Counted from the stretch's first letter, positions 8,376 through 30,433 are shown. The stretch is 64,000 nucleotides of DNA from Gammaproteobacteria bacterium (GCA_965238175.1 CBDEGZ010000003.1:2688001-2752000); one strand, 5' to 3'. The notes: generated by a model not told the origin, from the sequence alone. Translations and numbers: made by a program.

Positions 8376-9857
8376 TTAAAAGTTCACCGAGGCTCGAATT
8401 TCAGGCATTAAATCCAGAGCCAGCATTCCTCGCTGCCCACTTTTTGCCGCCATGTCCGCAGCATTTGCATGCACACTTACCCCCGTTTGCGATGCAGAAA
8501 ATAGATCCAACCCCTGAGCAACAAGACCAGCGATAACGCCTGTCAAAACATCTCCTATGCCACCACTCGCCATGCCAGGATTACCCTGTGAACAAAGCGA
8601 AATACCCATTTTTTCAGAAGTGATTAGAGTTCCTGAGCCTTTCAATACGATTACACCGCCATACTTTTGCTGTATCGCAGTGACTGCGGCAAAACGATCT
8701 TGTTGTATTTCAGCGACCGAACAACCCAACATTCTTGCGGCTTCACCCGGATGCGGCGTTAAAACCCAGTTTTCCCGTTGTACTGGATCTTGAGCAATTA
8801 AATTCAACGCATCTGCATCAACAATCAAAGGCAAGGAAGTTTCCAGGACACTGCCCAACATTTCTTGCCCCCACTTATCCAAACCAAGTCCAGGGCCAAT
8901 GGCAACAACCGAAGCGCGATGAATCAAATTCAACAAAGTATCACTGCGCTCAACACTGTGAGCCATAAGTTCCGGCCGACTCATCGCGATGTGTGTCGCA
9001 TGTCGTTCTCGGGTAGCCAGGCTAACTAACCCAGAACCTGATCGCGCTGCAGCCTCAGCAGCCATTCGCGCGGCACCAGCAAAACCATGATCGCCGCCTA
9101 CGATTAGAGTATGGCCATATTGACCTTTATGGCCAGTTGCTTTTCGTGTATCTAAAGTAGGTTTTTGCGTTAACAAGTCTATTCTTAAACAAGAAACAGG
9201 AACAGATTCATAAACTTCATCAGGTACTTCTAAATCATCAAAGTAAACATCGCCACTGTGGGTGGCACCCTCTCCCGTTAGCAAGCCCTGCTTAGCACCA
9301 ATAAAACTGATCGTTGCCTGAGCTTCTATCGCGGCCCCCATAATACTTCCAGTATCCGCGTTTAAACCCGTTGGAATATCTACTGCTAAAATGGGAGCAG
9401 AAGATTTATTGATAGCGTTAACGATATCAATATATTCTTCGTTAATATTTCGGTCCAACCCTGTCCCTAAAATTGCATCAATAATCACATCAGCTTGTTT
9501 TAGTTTCTCTACCGAAAAAGCTTCATGTTTGATCTCCGCTTGAGCAGATTTTTCTGCACAGGTTTTAGCATCACCCTGCAGATTTTCATGATCACCTACC
9601 TGTAAAAGGACAACATTTTTATCACTTTGTTGGGCAAGCCTAGAGATGACATAGCCATCTCCACCATTATTTCCATTACCACAAACAATCACGATTCGCC
9701 AAGCATCTGGCCATAGTTTATTTAGTAAATCAAACGCTGCTTGCCCAGCAGCTTCCATCAGTGAAAGCCCTTCCAAACCTTGCGCCTCAATCGCCTGCTT
9801 ATCCAGCTCGCGAACTTGAGTCGATGTATATAAATTTCGAGGTAAAAGACTATTCAT
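8376..9857 (-). CDS. nnr: Bifunctional NAD(P)H-hydrate epimerase/dehydratase
   Basis: GNNGGDG, VDIPTG, HKGQYGH, TPHPGEAA, GMASGGIGDVL. Confidence 0.95.
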   Translation of the reverse strand: MNSLLPRNLYTSTQVRELDKQAIEAQGLEGLSLMEAAGQAAFDLLNKLWPDAWRIVIVCGNGNNGGDGYVISRLAQQSDKNVVLLQVGDHENLQGDAKTCAEKSAQAEIKHEAFSVEKLKQADVIIDAILGTGLDRNINEEYIDIVNAINKSSAPILAVDIPTGLNADTGSIMGAAIEAQATISFIGAKQGLLTGEGATHSGDVYFDDLEVPDEVYESVPVSCLRIDLLTQKPTLDTRKATGHKGQYGHTLIVGGDHGFAGAARMAAEAAARSGSGLVSLATRERHATHIAMSRPELMAHSVERSDTLLNLIHRASVVAIGPGLGLDKWGQEMLGSVLETSLPLIVDADALNLIAQDPVQRENWVLTPHPGEAARMLGCSVAEIQQDRFAAVTAIQQKYGGVIVLKGSGTLITSEKMGISLCSQGNPGMASGGIGDVLTGVIAGLVAQGLDLFSASQTGVSVHANAADMAAKSGQRGMLALDLMPEIRASVNF

Positions 9858-25047: not shown

Positions 25048-26898
25048 TTATGGCAGACTGAATACGCTCAACACACCGCCAAGACGAGTGTAGTCGTTCA
25101 GACCTTTGTAAGCACCAACAGCGCCTAAGCCGTCAGTATCATTGATAAGGCCAGCAGCCATACCGATACCAGCCCAGCCACCAACACCTGACAATACACC
25201 TACATATTGCTTGCCTTTGTGAGACCACGTGTTTGTGTTACCAATGATGCCCGATGGAGTTTTGAATTTCCAAAGGAGCTTACCGCTCTTAGCATCAATC
25301 GCTTTCAAGTAACCCGCAAGATCGCCATAAAAAACGACGTCTCCAGCAGTTGCAAGCGCACCAGACCATACAGAGAAACGCTCTGGAATTGACCACACAA
25401 CTTTACCTGTGTTCGCATCCCAAGCAATGAAATTACCTAGGTTGTTATCTTCAGCATTGTTGTTAGGACAGTCAGGACAAACACGACCCGCAGGGAACAT
25501 GTTCAATACCGCGTTTACATATGGCGCACCAGCGACATATTCACCACCTGATACTGGCTCATAATCCATACAAACGTGGTTTGTAGGAACATAGTTAAGA
25601 CCCGTTCGTGGAGAGTATGCTGCAGGCTGTTGATCTTTAGAACCTAAAGCCGCAGGACAGATGTTAGTTGAGTTCACATCTTCACCGTTTTGGTGAGTTG
25701 AGTAACGTGAAACAACTTGTGGACGACCTGTCTTCATGTCAACGTGAGTTGCCCAGTTAACCGCTGCATCAAATTTTTCAGCAACAAGCAATTCACCAGT
25801 TACACGATCCATAGTATAGCCAAAGCCATTACGGTCAAAATGTACAAGACCTTTATGAGTTTTGCCATTGACAGTTACATCTTGAAGGATCATTTCGTTG
25901 ATACCATCATAATCCCATTCATCATGTGGCGTCATTTGGTAAACCCACTTAGCAACACCTGTGTCTACATCACGTGCAAACATAGTCATTGACCATTTAT
26001 TGTCACCTGGACGAACAACCGGGTTCCAAGTAGATGGATTACCATTTCCGTAATACATCAGGTTCAGATCTGGATCATACGGCCACCAACCCCAAGTAGA
26101 ACCACCACCAATTTTCCATTGATCACCTTTCCAGGTTTTCAGTGAAGAATTTTTACCAACTGGTTTGCCCAGCTCAGTCGTGTGTACAGGATCAATCAGC
26201 ATATCTGCATCAGGGCCCATTGAGTACGCTCTCCAAGCCATTGAACCATCGCTGATGTTATACGCATTCATCCAGCATCGAACACCGAATTCAGCGCCTG
26301 AAATACCAGTGAAAACTTTGTCTTTGATGATGTGTGGTGCGTTAGTATTGGTTTGTCCTTTTTTAGGATCACCATTTTTAACAGACCAAACTTTTTCACC
26401 TGTAGCCGCATTCAGTGCTACAAGAACAGTATCTGCTTGTTGAAGGAAGATTTTTCCTTCGCCATAGCCTAGACCACGATTAACCGTGTCACAGCACATT
26501 ACAGGTACAGTTTCGTCATAATCTTGAATAGGCACATATTCCCAAACGATTTCCAACGTATCTAAGTCGATAGCGAAAACATTGTTAGGAAATGCAGCGT
26601 GGATATATAGAGTATCTCCACCAAGACCAGTAGAGCTGCTAGGCAATACTAATGGTCCACCTTCGTGTCCACGAAGTACACCCGTTGAAAATGTCCAAGC
26701 CGCTTGCATCTGATGAGCATTACCACTGTTGATTTGGTTCAACTCAGAATAACGCCAGCCTGAAAAGTTACCACTAGGCATAACCCAGTAGTTTGCATCT
26801 TGCTGCAATTTAAGCAGCTCTTCGTTAGCCATTGCTGACGCAGACATGGTTAGTGCTGCACCCGCTAGAAGCCATCGATTTAACGATGATTTTCTCAT
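25048..26898 (-). CDS. xoxF: Lanthanide-dependent PQQ methanol dehydrogenase XoxF
   Basis: Signal peptide, TGVLRGHEG, vicinal CC ([10 protein letters not shown]), and [11 protein letters not shown] whose D-x-D carries the extra Asp diagnostic of lanthanide binding (MxaF has Ala). Confidence 0.93.
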
Positions 26899-26932
26899 GA
26901 CCTCCTCCTTATATATAATTTACTGTTAACAG

Positions 26933-26996
26933 TTTCGGTCTCTGTTCTATTTTTATAACTCAATGGAAGCCCGAGACCGGAAAGATACCATTGAGC
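26933..26996 (-). promoter_or_regulatory. H-type pseudoknot in the xoxF 5' leader (candidate cis-regulatory RNA)
   Basis: CUCAAUGG/CCAUUGAG stem; its loop UUUCCGGUCUC pairs with downstream GAGACCGAAA. Confidence 0.55.
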
Positions 26997-27212
26997 GGAA
27001 AACTTTTGTGTTGTTCTAATGAGGGACTAATGTATTTGTAAGAATATGTGTTTGAGTCAACACATGAGGAATAGCTTGAGTGGCTCAGTGACGATAGCCA
27101 ATGTTTTGAATGAAAATATTGAAATAGGATATTCATTTAATACTTTTTATCTTCCCTCAACTTGCTGTTTAACTCATTCCAAAGGACGGAACAGAAATAA
27201 CAACGAGGGTTG

Positions 27213-27240
27213 ATTATAACTAAATAGCAGGAACTATCAA
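27213..27240 (-). promoter_or_regulatory. Sigma70-like promoter upstream of xoxF
   Basis: Minus strand TTGATA-N16-TATAAT, about 310 nt before the xoxF start. Confidence 0.45.
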
Positions 27241-27365
27241 TATTTTTTTTGGGAAAATCTCACATAACCGATCAGGCTTAATATTAAATGACCAGAACAA
27301 TTACTATCTTATTGATTCTGCTTAAAATTAATATAAAACACATGATCGATATATGTACTGAAAGC

Positions 27366-27746
27366 TTAATTTGTAGCCGTCACATCCTTGCTTTTTTTAT
27401 GTCTGACGCCAACAAAACAGCGCTTTTCAGCCTCTGTCTCTGCAGCTTCAAGTACTGGCACGACTTCATCAGCCCGATCGCTATCCCTGAAAAGACCACC
27501 TTTCTCACCAGGCAAACGTTTATAAGTTTTGAACGTTCTTGCCTCATCCCACAAATCAAATGGAACTTTACTGGCAATGACATCGATTGTGCATGAACAA
27601 GAATAAAGATTCTCAACAGTCTGGCCACCATGCTTTGCCATGCAGGTGAGAACAGCATCTACCCGTTCTAGCGTAGGGTAATCATTCCCATAAGCAGAAA
27701 AAGACGTCAGTGCTATTAAAAATGGTACAAATCGTATTAATTTCAT
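27366..27746 (-). CDS. Small secreted Cys-containing protein of the type seen near PQQ dehydrogenase (xox) loci
   Basis: Signal peptide; NDYPT..R...V..CM....CSCTIDVIAS...GEKGGLFRD...AEKRCF pattern; adjacent to xoxF. Confidence 0.7.
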   Translation of the reverse strand: MKLIRFVPFLIALTSFSAYGNDYPTLERVDAVLTCMAKHGGQTVENLYSCSCTIDVIASKVPFDLWDEARTFKTYKRLPGEKGGLFRDSDRADEVVPVLEAAETEAEKRCFVGVRHKKSKDVTATN

Positions 27747-27836
27747 AATGACTCTCCAGTAAACCCGTCTTATTTCAGGGCGGTTTATTTATATTTTTTC
27801 CCAATCATACCATCGACTACAAACCAGGTATAAAGT

Positions 27837-28886
27837 TCATCGATTAGTTAGCGTTTCGTTTTGTTTGGATACTTCATGTGTCAAAGGTGTATTCAATGCA
27901 ATACCTGATTCAAGTGATAGTTCGTATGCCGATCGGTTAACCGCAAATTCAGCATCGTAGAAGCCGTAAATATTTTTTACCCAATAAGCTAACCTCCAAA
28001 CTACCGCATGATCTCCATTTTCTACTACCAATATTTTAGCTTGTTTTTCGGAGTTTAATGCTTTTTCCCTTTCACATGCTTGTATCCAGACATCATTTAG
28101 AAATATTTCTATATCTTCAGCAGGTAAACCATAGCCAATCTTGAAATCGACAAATCGCATTAAGCCAACTGCTGGACATTTGTTTAAGACTTCAACTTTA
28201 GCATTTCTCAATTTAGAATTCGGCATAACGACGACATGCCGCGAACGAAGATCTCTAAACCGAGTTTGCGTTAGAGTCGTTTCAATCGTTACTGCGACTA
28301 AATCATATTCATCAATCTTGATAATGCTACCGGGTTCGACATCACCATTGTATAAAAGCATTAAACCATTGATGTTATCTGGAGCCCAATAATCTTTCGT
28401 TGAAAATAATACGATCAAAAGACCTCCCAATACACTCGTTGTTTTAAACCAGTCTGTTACACCCCATATATTGATTACCGCAATCAATACGATAGTAAAG
28501 GCTGCAATGATGATTAACAGGTTAAATATTTCTGACTGGTATGTTTCTACTCGATATTCAGAACCATCGATCTCTTTAAGTCTCCCATATTTTCTTATAA
28601 TAACTATATGCAGAAAATTGACTATTAAATAAGCGATCAAGAGCGTTAAGCCGGTGCGAGAAAGTTGTGATGTCCACCCTCCGACAAATAATTCTAAAAA
28701 GTAAATTCCAAAAAGAACGATGTTGATCAGTCGTAAGGTCCAAATTTTCGTTTTTACTGAAGTTGAATCTTTGTCTGAACGAAATACTGTAACAATTTGT
28801 TGGGTAAAAACGAATAATAAAAAATTGATCCCAAGCGCGATCAGATCTAGTAAGGACAAAGTTCCTAATATAGGTATGTCAGACAT
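27837..28886 (-). CDS. MscS-family mechanosensitive channel
   Basis: Several TMs, then NINGLMLLY...PGSIIKI...TRFRD...VVMPNSKL MscS beta domain. Confidence 0.85.
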   Translation of the reverse strand: MSDIPILGTLSLLDLIALGINFLLFVFTQQIVTVFRSDKDSTSVKTKIWTLRLINIVLFGIYFLELFVGGWTSQLSRTGLTLLIAYLIVNFLHIVIIRKYGRLKEIDGSEYRVETYQSEIFNLLIIIAAFTIVLIAVINIWGVTDWFKTTSVLGGLLIVLFSTKDYWAPDNINGLMLLYNGDVEPGSIIKIDEYDLVAVTIETTLTQTRFRDLRSRHVVVMPNSKLRNAKVEVLNKCPAVGLMRFVDFKIGYGLPAEDIEIFLNDVWIQACEREKALNSEKQAKILVVENGDHAVVWRLAYWVKNIYGFYDAEFAVNRSAYELSLESGIALNTPLTHEVSKQNETLTNR

Positions 28887-28914: not shown

Positions 28915-29490
28915 ATGCTGCCTGACTGTTATTCAAATCACAACTATAATCAGGTCAAAATGAAACTAGTAAATATTTATTTCCTGATACCTCTGACTCT
29001 ATTAGTCATTACCGTTGTTGTTATCAATAGCCTTGGTAATACACGTCCATTAACAAAATATGAAATAAAAGAATTACAAAGTGTATTCTTTGAGCAAGTG
29101 GATTACTCAAAAATCACACTTGTTACCGCTAATCTTCCACCAACACTTGCGGCGCTCGTTTTTGGTAATTTTATTCTTTATCGAGAGGAGTATCACAATG
29201 AAGACTTTAGCCATGATTACTTAAAAATGGGTCGGTTGGTTCATGAGGTAGGACATGTATGGGCAAACCAGACTAAAGGGTTACAAACTTCTGTCTACGC
29301 TGTTTTAGAGCAGATCAGATATCAAGACAAAGTTTATACCCATAAACTCTTAACGGGCGAAAATTCGCTAGATGAATTCCGTTACGAACAGCAGTGTCGT
29401 ATATTGAGCGACTATTATATCAATCGCCATCTTGGTTTCGATATCACGCAATACGAGTCAACTATCTACAAAACGATCAAGATTAAATAA
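28915..29490 (+). CDS. Membrane-anchored/secreted zincin-like protein (DUF4157-like)
   Basis: N-terminal hydrophobic segment, RPLT..E, LVHEVGHVW HExxH, distal EQQ. Confidence 0.6.
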   Translation: MLPDCYSNHNYNQVKMKLVNIYFLIPLTLLVITVVVINSLGNTRPLTKYEIKELQSVFFEQVDYSKITLVTANLPPTLAALVFGNFILYREEYHNEDFSHDYLKMGRLVHEVGHVWANQTKGLQTSVYAVLEQIRYQDKVYTHKLLTGENSLDEFRYEQQCRILSDYYINRHLGFDITQYESTIYKTIKIK

Positions 29491-30433
29491 ACGCATCCAC
29501 AAGACCAACACCCTTTCTCACTACTTTCACTTGTCCTTCATCTTCTTCAAGATCGTCTTCTGCAAATGCATCCTGTTCGTGATCCGACAAAGCTGCTGTC
29601 GCCCGATCATTATCCGACGATTGCTGAGACACATCCGCATCAGCCAACATCAAACCACTCTGTTCCAACATCTCCTTTAAACGTGGTATTGCATCCTCAA
29701 CGGCTTCTTTTACGGAACCATGATTAGCAACAAATTGCACATGTGCTTGATCATCAATAATGTTTATCTTGATTTGTAATGGACCAAGTTCACGTGGATT
29801 TAAACTGATCTTCGCTTCTTGAATTGTTTGCCCAATTTGCCACTTAACCCGAGAAACTAACTCATCTCCCCAATTCTGCGTTCCTATTGGATTTGTGATC
29901 GCAGTAAATCCAGTCGCACTCGCTTGAGCTCCCTTTCCACGTAACGATGAATTCGTAAGTTCCTGCACTAAACTACGTACAAAATCAGTATCTGTATCCA
30001 GATCGCCGTCAGTTTGAAACGCTTCAAGAAAATTTTGTGCAGATAACATTTCCTTAGATAATACTTCACTGTTGAGATTCGAAAATATCTTATTACCCAA
30101 CAATTGGTCGGTTACGTTAAGTACAGGAACCAATTTATCCCCTGCTAATTGTTCTGTTCCTCCCCCCAAAAACAACTGCGACAATATTGGCCGCTCTTGG
30201 ATCCCTTCCGGAAAAAGCTTGCCGCTGAAAGACCCTGACTCCAATTGCTGTTTAAGTTGGCTAAGATCAGTAATTACAGGTGCAACCTGTGATTGAAATA
30301 AAGCCAGAAAACCTAGGTCTGACGAGGCCTCTGAGCCCGATGTAGGTAACGACGCTGATCCTTCTGCAGACGCTGTAGCTGTTGTTTTTAAACCTACTGA
30401 ACTTGATATTGCTTGCATCCTTGTCGTCTCCAT
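29483..30433 (-). CDS. fliK: Flagellar hook-length control protein FliK
   Basis: Low-complexity N-terminus; WGDEL..RVKW...AKISLNPRELGPLQIKI...EAVEDAIPRLKEML FliK C-domain; ends GLVDAFI. Confidence 0.85.
   Translation of the reverse strand: METTRMQAISSSVGLKTTATASAEGSASLPTSGSEASSDLGFLALFQSQVAPVITDLSQLKQQLESGSFSGKLFPEGIQERPILSQLFLGGGTEQLAGDKLVPVLNVTDQLLGNKIFSNLNSEVLSKEMLSAQNFLEAFQTDGDLDTDTDFVRSLVQELTNSSLRGKGAQASATGFTAITNPIGTQNWGDELVSRVKWQIGQTIQEAKISLNPRELGPLQIKINIIDDQAHVQFVANHGSVKEAVEDAIPRLKEMLEQSGLMLADADVSQQSSDNDRATAALSDHEQDAFAEDDLEEDEGQVKVVRKGVGLVDAFI

Follow-up and report, generated by a model that had tools for sequence, protein, structure and literature searches.

XoxF enzymes have a central place in rare-earth biology and in the oxidation of methanol in many environments. 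MxaY and MxcQE/MxbDM are protein-based lanthanide-switch systems, and the pseudoknots in the leaders of T4 gene 32, rpsO/S15 and the alpha operon/S4 control translation initiation. A further protein-based system, the two-component system PedS2/PedR2, is described for the expression of lanthanide-dependent pyrroloquinoline quinone (PQQ) dehydrogenases in the excerpts consulted of PMC6115532. In the literature searched, only protein-based, transcription-level control of XoxF is described. Here we report a leader element found directly upstream of xoxF in a stretch of 64,000 nucleotides (nt) from a Gammaproteobacteria bacterium (GCA_965238175.1, CBDEGZ010000003.1:2688001-2752000), which in its full length is called the window; G000 is the window's own genome, and other labels beginning with G or L denote compared genomes and loci. 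Sequence comparison indicates that the element is very probably a functional structured RNA. It is probably a conserved H-type pseudoknot leader that controls xoxF expression in cis, and it would add a post-transcriptional layer to the control of this gene.

The leader pseudoknot and its gene

Two interleaved helices, P1 and P2, were read directly from the sequence at 26996..26933 on the minus strand, in mRNA sense. The parts of the element and the gene that follows it are listed here.

26996..27003, minus strand: conserved 5' flank of P1, GUUUUCCG, kept in 6 of the 8 sequences of the genus
26988..26995, minus strand: 5' arm of P1, CUCAAUGG, from direct reading, with both-side changes at all 8 pairs
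26973..26983, minus strand: 5' arm of P2, inside the P1 loop, UUUCCGGUCUC, core G[A/G]UCU[C/U], from direct reading
26959..26966, minus strand: 3' arm of P1, CCAUUGAG, from direct reading and covariation
26943..26958, minus strand: L3, the A/U-rich linker of 16 nt that crosses P1, variable in sequence across relatives
26933..26942, minus strand: 3' arm of P2, GAGACCGAAA, with (C)GAGAUCA(A) in other clades, a proposed mimic of the ribosome-binding site (RBS)
26922..26933, minus strand: P3, a clade-specific hairpin or palindrome, ACUGUUAACAGU, from direct reading and folding
26896..26910, minus strand: RBS and start codon, AAGGAGGAGGUCAUG, with the stretch GGAGGAGGUCAUG invariant
25048..26898, minus strand: xoxF, lanthanide-type PQQ methanol dehydrogenase of 616 amino acids (TIGR03075, DYD motif, 6dam)

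P1 joins CUCAAUGG with CCAUUGAG in 8 perfect pairs, while P2 joins UUUCCGGUCUC with GAGACCGAAA in 10 pairs with one bulged C. An 8-bp first stem whose loop pairs downstream (26983-26973 with 26942-26933) had been proposed in a first-pass annotation of this DNA, and direct reading bore out both helices. The 3' arm of P2 ends 22 nt before the Shine-Dalgarno (SD) sequence, AAGGAGGAGG, at 26910..26901, and the AUG lies at 26898..26896; AAGGAGGAGGUC followed by AUG spans 26910..26896. In other clades, the 5' flank of P1 consists of a U-rich stretch and a following A (columns 8-11 mostly U and column 15 A in 75/97 sequences of the alignment described below), and the conserved GUUUU directly 5' of P1 would fit what we take to be the RNase E consensus.

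On its sequence, the gene at 25048..26898 is xoxF, having both the PQQ propeller and the D-x-D motif. This identification follows from three results. The product was matched by TIGR03075, the PQQ methanol/ethanol-family dehydrogenase model, at E 9.8e-207 and 687.7 bits, above the cutoff of 480. Its residues 329-331 form the Asp-Tyr-Asp lanthanide motif (DEWDYDG, D329-Y-D331). Its top PDB match was 6dam, a lanthanide-dependent XoxF (E 1.9e-275); large-subunit chains of the Ca-dependent MxaF type, 1w6s and 1h4i among them, ranked lower, at approximately E 1e-173 or weaker. The second Asp of the D-x-D motif is the extra lanthanide-coordinating residue. Downstream of xoxF lies parC, and xoxF is otherwise alone in G000. 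The only other PQQ dehydrogenase of this genome is 34% identical to XoxF.

The window's sequence taken singly does not set the element apart from chance. The minimum-energy fold of the element was -24.4 kcal/mol (z = -1.57), and 10 of 200 shuffled sequences folded equally well. A count of perfect 8-bp stems with an interleaved helix of at least 7 bp gave 4 for the window, where 30 block shuffles gave 3.07 +/- 1.55. The statement in the first-pass annotation that two such helices are unlikely by chance is therefore unsupported from this sequence alone, and the case for the element is made by the comparative evidence, that is, by conservation and by covariation in both helices, rather than by the single-sequence fold. 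The three other interleaved-stem sites in the window lie at 9407, 21539 and 35171 (+), their number being at the level of the shuffles.

Conservation, covariation and distribution

Among 41 genomes searched at the DNA level, 8 including G000 had a match to the upstream region, and it was present in 6/6 genomes of the same genus; the eighth match, in the class-level relative G020, covered the RBS and the start of the coding sequence (CDS) only. About 110 nt before the ATG are near-invariant in the 6/6 genus relatives, and the next approximately 200 nt upstream diverge. In an alignment for the genus made of seven orthologues and one paralogue (8 sequences), compensatory changes were seen in P1 (U-A to C-G, and AAU/AUU to GGC/GCU) and in P2 (G-C to A-U), together with one-sided changes to G-U that keep pairing in the mRNA sense only. 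Pairing held in 97.0% of the cells of this alignment, and 4 pairs changed on both sides versus 0.9 in shuffles, of which 3/500 reached 4. The paralogue comes from G004, which holds two copies of leader plus xoxF, the second of them at L009:1500-1613. In its leader, P1 and P2 are retained, with compensatory changes, the P3 palindrome is gone, and the RBS reads GGAGGUAGUC.

The distribution of the element beyond the genus was followed with two covariance models, R1 built from the genus and R2 built from 31 sequences with P1 alone given as structure. Of the 80 best XoxF loci, chosen by protein similarity from species-representative genomes, 7 had an R1 match immediately ahead of the start codon. 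Of the 80 loci listed from a pattern scan that demanded both P2 arms and RBS, 23 were positive, and 23/23 of these precede an XoxF-like open reading frame (ORF) of 60-82% identity. With a fold-blind pattern, which fixed nothing but the RBS-ATG and, roughly 100 nt inside the gene, a conserved triplet of N-Y-W codons, 178 of the 196 unique upstream sequences from the matches listed and the earlier loci had canonical P2 arms, and most of the 18 sequences without them were chance matches to unrelated genes. Among the matches listed, R2 matched 97 of 100 sources, of which the window's own locus is one (96/99 further loci), and 84 in a second set of 96, of which 86 were metagenomic and 10 came from the genome scan. 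One carrier, Methylohalomonas lacus (locus L157), is a cultured organism. In total, the element was found directly upstream of xoxF in 180/195 further loci among the matches listed; conservation ahead of other xoxF genes, which the first-pass annotation had named as a check, thus held.

When the class was sampled with one genome per family, 7 of 151 genomes were positive, G000 included, with exactly one match each. Two of these seven (G045 and G146) are unpublished; without them the count is 5/149, and no other result depends on them. The 6/6 class-sample matches outside G000 stand directly before an XoxF homologue of 75-91% identity. In G000 itself, the covariance model gave one real match and 3 others with E above 3. 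The motif was found in no other gene context in these two sets, being always directly upstream of an XoxF homologue (23/23 pattern loci and 6/6 class-sample matches).

Covariation was measured in the 97 sequences matched by R2, in an alignment fitted to P1, so that the P1 counts lean to that helix, whereas P2 lies outside the structure of the model. Standard pairs filled 88.8% of cells versus 76.6% in shuffles, and 200 cells were changed on both sides versus 75.3. The covariation score was 0.408 versus 0.177 in shuffles, a value reached by 0/500 of them. When the 3' partners were slid by 1-3 columns in either direction, pairing fell to 35-54%. Both-side changes occurred at 8/8 pairs of P1, one of which was C-G in 30 sequences, A-U in 23, U-G in 13, G-C in 9, U-A in 6 and G-U in 5. 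U-G and G-U pairs are frequent, and they fit the xoxF-sense RNA strand only.

P2 was followed in 181 unique sequences whose arms were anchored by their conserved cores; the search pattern fixes part of the core, making the pairing partly one by construction. Within that limit, 6 core pairs are kept in 179-181 of the 181 sequences, and the 7-bp core that includes the flanking pair is paired in 152-181 of 181 per position. One core pair was A-U in 161 sequences, G-C in 13, G-U in 5 and A-C in 2, and the flanking pair was U-A in 111, C-G in 23, U-G in 18 and unpaired in 29. The outermost pairs of P2 are often unformed. P1 evolves freely while the sequence of P2 is nearly frozen.

The resulting consensus has a P1 of 8-12 bp and free sequence, with a loop CUUU..YG[A/G]UCUCG that pairs (as P2) with (C)GAG[A/G]YCR located 8-18 nt downstream of P1. 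L3 is 8-18 nt long in the 97 sequences, 40% U and 34% A, and variable in sequence. Those conserved bases that look unpaired are mostly extensions of P1 and P2, namely the A before P1 with the U after it, the CUUU with AA(A), and the G after the loop core. Since both helices are supported by comparison, P1 and P2 are read from these alignments as an H-type pseudoknot and not as two exclusive hairpins. The topology given in the first-pass annotation accordingly stands, and the covariation it had proposed to look for was found in both helices: all 8 pairs of P1 vary on both sides, and two pairs of P2 covary by exchanges among A-U, G-C and G-U and among U-A, C-G and U-G.

These data also bear on whether the stems could be a feature of the DNA, such as an inverted-repeat operator of a lanthanide or methanol regulon, or could have arisen by chance. 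The single-sequence fold, which is not significant, would agree with such an origin, as would ACTGTTAACAGT, a perfect DNA palindrome. However, the pairing of P1 is conserved and its sequence is not, which is the reverse of what an operator would show. On the other strand, the many U-G and G-U pairs would turn into A-C mismatches. In one group of sequences the predicted promoter precedes the element, and chance is excluded by the at least 180 conserved instances. An operator is thus unlikely because pairing rather than sequence is conserved in P1 and because the U-G pairs fit one strand only, and we consider a DNA-level or chance origin exceedingly improbable.

The phylogenetic placement of the motif was determined with a FastTree tree of 99 XoxF proteins, comprising those of G000, of the 80 protein-based loci and of 18 among the 22 extra motif loci, the remaining 4 having an ORF shorter than 480 amino acids or none found. 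All motif-bearing genes fell in one XoxF clade with a Shimodaira-Hasegawa-like support of 100. This clade has 28 rows, of which 26 carry the motif and the others are L017 and L048. The L017 locus begins inside the gene and offers no upstream DNA to read. L048 (1300-1512), inside the motif clade, has a decayed leader in which the 5' arm of P2 is lost, the 3' arm is present and the RBS reads AAGAUC. As the 18 extra rows were chosen for carrying the motif, an unbiased statement is restricted to the 80 protein-based loci; there the clade consists of the 7 positives together with L017 and L048, and none of the 71 remaining loci gave a match. Because all motif-bearing genes share one clade, the sequences place the motif in a single gammaproteobacterial XoxF subclade, in which it arose once. 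It was retained while the XoxF protein diverged to about 60-65% identity. One match, L275:3114-3249, had a weak score (25.9 bits) and an apparently rearranged structure.

Conservation in the genus also extends into the gene: in the genus alignment the CDS varies hardly at all over roughly its first 60 nt (26839..26898, minus strand), which encode the signal peptide, and this near-invariance of the nucleotides holds at third codon positions as well. The segment contains one further feature.

26873..26888, minus strand: hairpin CAUCG-uuaaau-CGAUG, codons 4-9 of xoxF, invariant in the genus

The near-invariant CDS start suggests an RNA-level constraint that reaches into the coding region, and the hairpin is possibly part of a structure of the initiation region. 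UCG (Ser) and CGA (Arg) codons make up its stem, and the same stem was seen in a second clade (L176, L016 and L015).

Upstream of the gene, a possible ORF of 58 amino acids in G000 (26962..27138, minus strand) starts at a conserved AAUGAA and enters the 3' arm of P1. A conserved leader peptide was considered and rejected, as an ORF from the ATG near 27137 was found in 4/8 genus sequences, with lengths of 41-58 amino acids and unconserved ends; the rejection is partial, the search expression having missed variant contexts in at least two further genus sequences. Farther upstream, ORFs of 126, 349 and 191 amino acids (27366..28886, minus strand, and 28915..29490, plus strand) had no NCBIfam or Pfam match, and the next gene (29483..30433, minus strand) had a weak FliK-like C-terminal match. 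At the motif-bearing locus L177:1469-7880, xoxF is followed by a cupredoxin (PF00127) and then a family-3 solute-binding protein (XoxJ-like), and is preceded by a SoxY-SoxZ fusion-like protein. A cytochrome cL-type XoxG was not seen among the five ORFs scanned there.

The initiation region and modes of control

The stretch GGAGGAGGUCAUG was present before 7/7 motif-bearing genes and 0/25 others in the 32 protein-based loci that could be aligned from query residue 1, and also in 7/8 genus copies and 6/6 class-sample matches. In the 97-sequence alignment and in the set of 180 sequences used for duplex calculations the RBS is fixed by the search pattern. RNAalifold on the 97 sequences did not predict P1, and paired the G[A/G]UCUC of the P2 5' arm with GAGGUC at -6..-1 in 96/97. 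The duplex of the P1 loop with the 3' arm of P2 had an energy of -11.5 +/- 1.9 kcal/mol (n=180), and that of the same loop with the RBS (-14..+6) was -11.5 +/- 2.3 kcal/mol (n=180). With a shuffled RBS the energy was -7.3 kcal/mol, and the real RBS was stronger than the shuffled mean in 165/180 sequences. The 3' arm of P2, (C)GAGAUCA, resembles a copied start region (GAGGUCA). We infer a three-way constraint among loop, arm and RBS, which would explain why these segments are frozen while P1 drifts. A second pseudoknot helix that copies the ribosome-binding site would be an unusual design.

The linker between the 3' arm of P2 and the RBS is 15-41 nt long (median 25; 180 sequences) and varies among clades. 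It contains CAUGAUC in 77 of the 180 sequences, a CAUGAY variant in 5, the GUUAAC palindrome only in 49 (as in the window), and none of these in 49. CAUGAUC has two complements, GGUCAUG at the start codon and, for its UGAUC part, the GAUCA in the 3' arm of P2, and constrained folds show a CAUGAUC hairpin. By analogy, this clade-variable linker resembles the expression platforms of riboswitches.

From these sequences, control would most likely be exerted at translation initiation, through the RBS-mimicking pseudoknot. With the loop held in the pseudoknot by P2, the strong SD and the AUG would be free and xoxF would be translated. If the pseudoknot were prevented or opened, the loop could pair with GAGGUC at -6..-1, often on into the AUG, and the initiation site would be closed. 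The linker CAUGAUC could likewise close the initiation site in the 77/180 sequences that have it. The trigger could be a ligand, an ion, a protein, a small RNA (sRNA) or temperature.

Several observations weigh against control by this exchange of partners. The pairing of loop and RBS cannot covary, both sides being invariant, and in the paralogue at L009 the RBS GGAGGUAGUC breaks that pairing, yet P1 and P2 are kept. P2 offers the nearer partner to the loop and should win the competition, so that a trigger is needed. The invariant SD could simply be the optimal site of a highly expressed gene. Folding of the 180 sequences gave the RBS a mean unpaired probability of 0.355, 0.366 and 0.371 in three states with the P2 arms blocked or free, and the accessibility was inconsistent, going up in 30 and down in 21 of 180 with the arms blocked; the nested-fold model cannot represent loop-RBS pairing with P1 intact, and this result speaks neither for nor against a switch.

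The conservation of the P2 loop in sequence, and not in structure alone, would also agree with a site for a trans-acting factor, either an RNA-binding protein (in the style of T4 gene 32 or the ribosomal proteins, or CsrA at a GGA-rich RBS) or an sRNA acting on the loop or on the 3' arm of P2, and the A/U-rich single-stranded linker between pseudoknot and RBS would suit such a factor. However, the covariance model finds no second loop or arm context in the genome, and XoxF is exported and cannot autoregulate its own mRNA. A trans-acting factor site is, in our judgement, distinctly unlikely.

The position of the transcript's 5' end is pertinent to what the pseudoknot does, and one upstream feature is relevant.

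27208..27265, minus strand: promoter-like block, with TTGATA-16-TATAAT at 27240..27213 (11/12 consensus matches), the candidate promoter of xoxF in this genus

This block, preceded by an A-tract and ATGTGAGATTTTCC, is kept in all 6 genus relatives, about 300 nt upstream and with a variable spacer to the pseudoknot. It would give a leader of approximately 300 nt; the scan for sigma-70-like sites was overall at chance (4 sites versus 3.7 expected). No convincing sigma-54 or sigma-70 promoter was found by eye inside or abutting the element in G000. In 10/97 sequences, G000 not among them, a regular expression found a promoter of the type TTGACG-spacer-GATAAT that ends 2-10 nt before P1; 9 of these 10 share a near-identical promoter and P1. 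The CDS and the element are covered by contigs of RNA or presumed-RNA libraries from close relatives with approximately 93-97% identity; in 3 runs these contigs stop at 26975..26988, in one case running into adapter-like letters. These are contigs and not reads, from runs that hold 8-17% of the sampled words. The contigs give no cover upstream of 26988, which is not taken as a lack of transcription. Their ends hint, weakly, at a mature 5' end close to P1.

A transcript that begins there would agree with a constitutive 5' element, in which a compact pseudoknot and a strong SD shield the mRNA from RNase E and RppH and keep the RBS open for a high, unregulated output. The promoters that abut P1 in the 10/97 sequences (nine being near-identical) and the contig ends in the 3 runs would fit such an element, as would an SD region that matches 12/13 positions of what we take to be the 3' tail of 16S rRNA. 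Stability alone, however, would not freeze P2 while P1 varies freely, and it leaves the mimicry between the RBS and the P2 arm unexplained; moreover, the only conserved sigma-70-like promoter in the genus is the one about 300 nt upstream. A purely constitutive role therefore seems rather doubtful, while the leader pseudoknot may also add to mRNA stability, at or near a mature 5' end, alongside the proposed control of initiation.

A ligand-sensing riboswitch would in turn supply the trigger, with an aptamer for a lanthanide, PQQ, methanol, formaldehyde or another one-carbon metabolite whose binding shifts the loop between the P2 arm and the RBS. The structure is conserved and covarying, and lies in the 5' leader directly upstream of the start codon (23/23 and 6/6 in the two sets above), with a single copy per genome and a single gene family. 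H-type pseudoknots are a known riboswitch architecture (SAM-II, preQ1 and guanidine-III), and the clade-specific linker from pseudoknot to RBS is of the kind seen in expression platforms. On the other hand, L3 is variable and almost all conserved bases lie in helices, with no evident pocket, and the pseudoknot does not include the SD. The motif is carried by no second gene family that could narrow the ligand, and nothing in the sequence points to a particular one, so that the lanthanide, PQQ or C1 response proposed in the first-pass annotation gains no support. XoxF and its use of PQQ and lanthanides are periplasmic, whereas an mRNA senses the cytoplasm. As the conserved bases are explained by the helices and L3 is variable, there is little room for a ligand pocket, which lowers the standing of a riboswitch; on balance we hold it rather unlikely. 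The narrower proposal, that the riboswitch responds directly to lanthanide ions in the cytoplasm or to PQQ, is very unlikely. If it were true, this leader would be the first RNA known to sense an f-block element, and a lanthanide switch at the RNA level, and it would give a reason for the import of lanthanides into the cytoplasm despite a periplasmic enzyme. A trigger that is a lanthanide or PQQ would be of wide interest and might be used in a genetically encoded rare-earth sensor.

Comparison with known RNA families and regulatory systems

The region 26500..27900 was compared on both strands with Rfam 15 at E values up to 10. Six matches were returned, all with E of at least 1.6 and below their gathering scores, and none of them to a riboswitch family. 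One, Afu_264 (RF01505, a small nucleolar RNA), overlaps the coordinates of the element on the opposite strand (plus strand, 26879..26976), with 14.4 bits against a gathering score of 40 and E 9.5. Ten diverse motif-bearing loci (67157 nt) gave 0 matches to Rfam 15 at the gathering threshold. The element thus has no match among the covariance models of Rfam 15, those of SAM-II, preQ1-I/II/III, fluoride, guanidine-III and ZTP included; the Rfam scan proposed in the first-pass annotation thus gave no usable match, and SAM-II and preQ1, whose conserved nucleotides that annotation had not seen here, were not matched.

The retrieved parts of the literature on xoxF with riboswitch, untranslated region or post-transcriptional control describe no xoxF leader RNA. 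Among the matches listed for lanthanide with riboswitch, there was no xoxF leader and no lanthanide riboswitch in what the titles and abstracts tell; by these, the papers concern probing chemistry, sensor engineering and other unrelated topics. The main texts of large motif-discovery papers hold no mention of PQQ, quinoprotein, methanol, alcohol dehydrogenase or methylotroph, and their supplements may list such a motif. The known riboswitches of a Methylophaga strain, in the excerpts of PMC12530212, include none before xoxF, and the passages on post-transcriptional control retrieved from PMC6277846 do not concern an xoxF leader. The claim of the first-pass annotation that this is an undescribed RNA-level feature of lanthanide methanol dehydrogenase genes agrees with its absence from Rfam 15 and from the literature searched. 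The leader is thus a new candidate RNA motif with strong covariation, known from at least about 180 distinct sequences that come mostly from uncultured genomes and metagenomes.

In its general form the element is like the small pseudoknots SAM-II, SAM-V, preQ1-I/II and guanidine-III, in which a small hairpin has a loop that pairs downstream and L1 is pyrimidine-rich, and like the H-type pseudoknot riboswitches it lies in the 5' leader just ahead of the RBS. It differs from them in matching no covariance model, in having its SD outside P2 and 15-41 nt downstream, in its unconserved L3, and in being found before xoxF only. The leaders of T4 gene 32, rpsO/S15 and the alpha operon/S4 offer a second comparison, since they too have a pseudoknot at or upstream of the initiation region, followed by an A/U-rich stretch. 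Unlike the products of those genes, the product of xoxF is a periplasmic enzyme, and classical autoregulation is not expected. With the ompA leader, the element shares a structured 5' leader on the mRNA of a very abundant envelope or periplasmic protein, and its structure may likewise sit at the 5' terminus; the ompA leader is made of simple hairpins, whereas the xoxF leader has a pseudoknot with a sequence-frozen second helix that mimics the RBS.

The proposed control by the pseudoknot leader would finally be like the protein-based lanthanide switches in acting on the expression of lanthanide-dependent PQQ dehydrogenases. G000 has no MxaF-like second methanol dehydrogenase with which to switch. 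MxaY, MxcQE/MxbDM and PedS2/PedR2 act at the level of transcription, through sensor kinases that sense the periplasm, whereas the xoxF element would act as an RNA, within the transcript itself, and in one subclade of XoxF.

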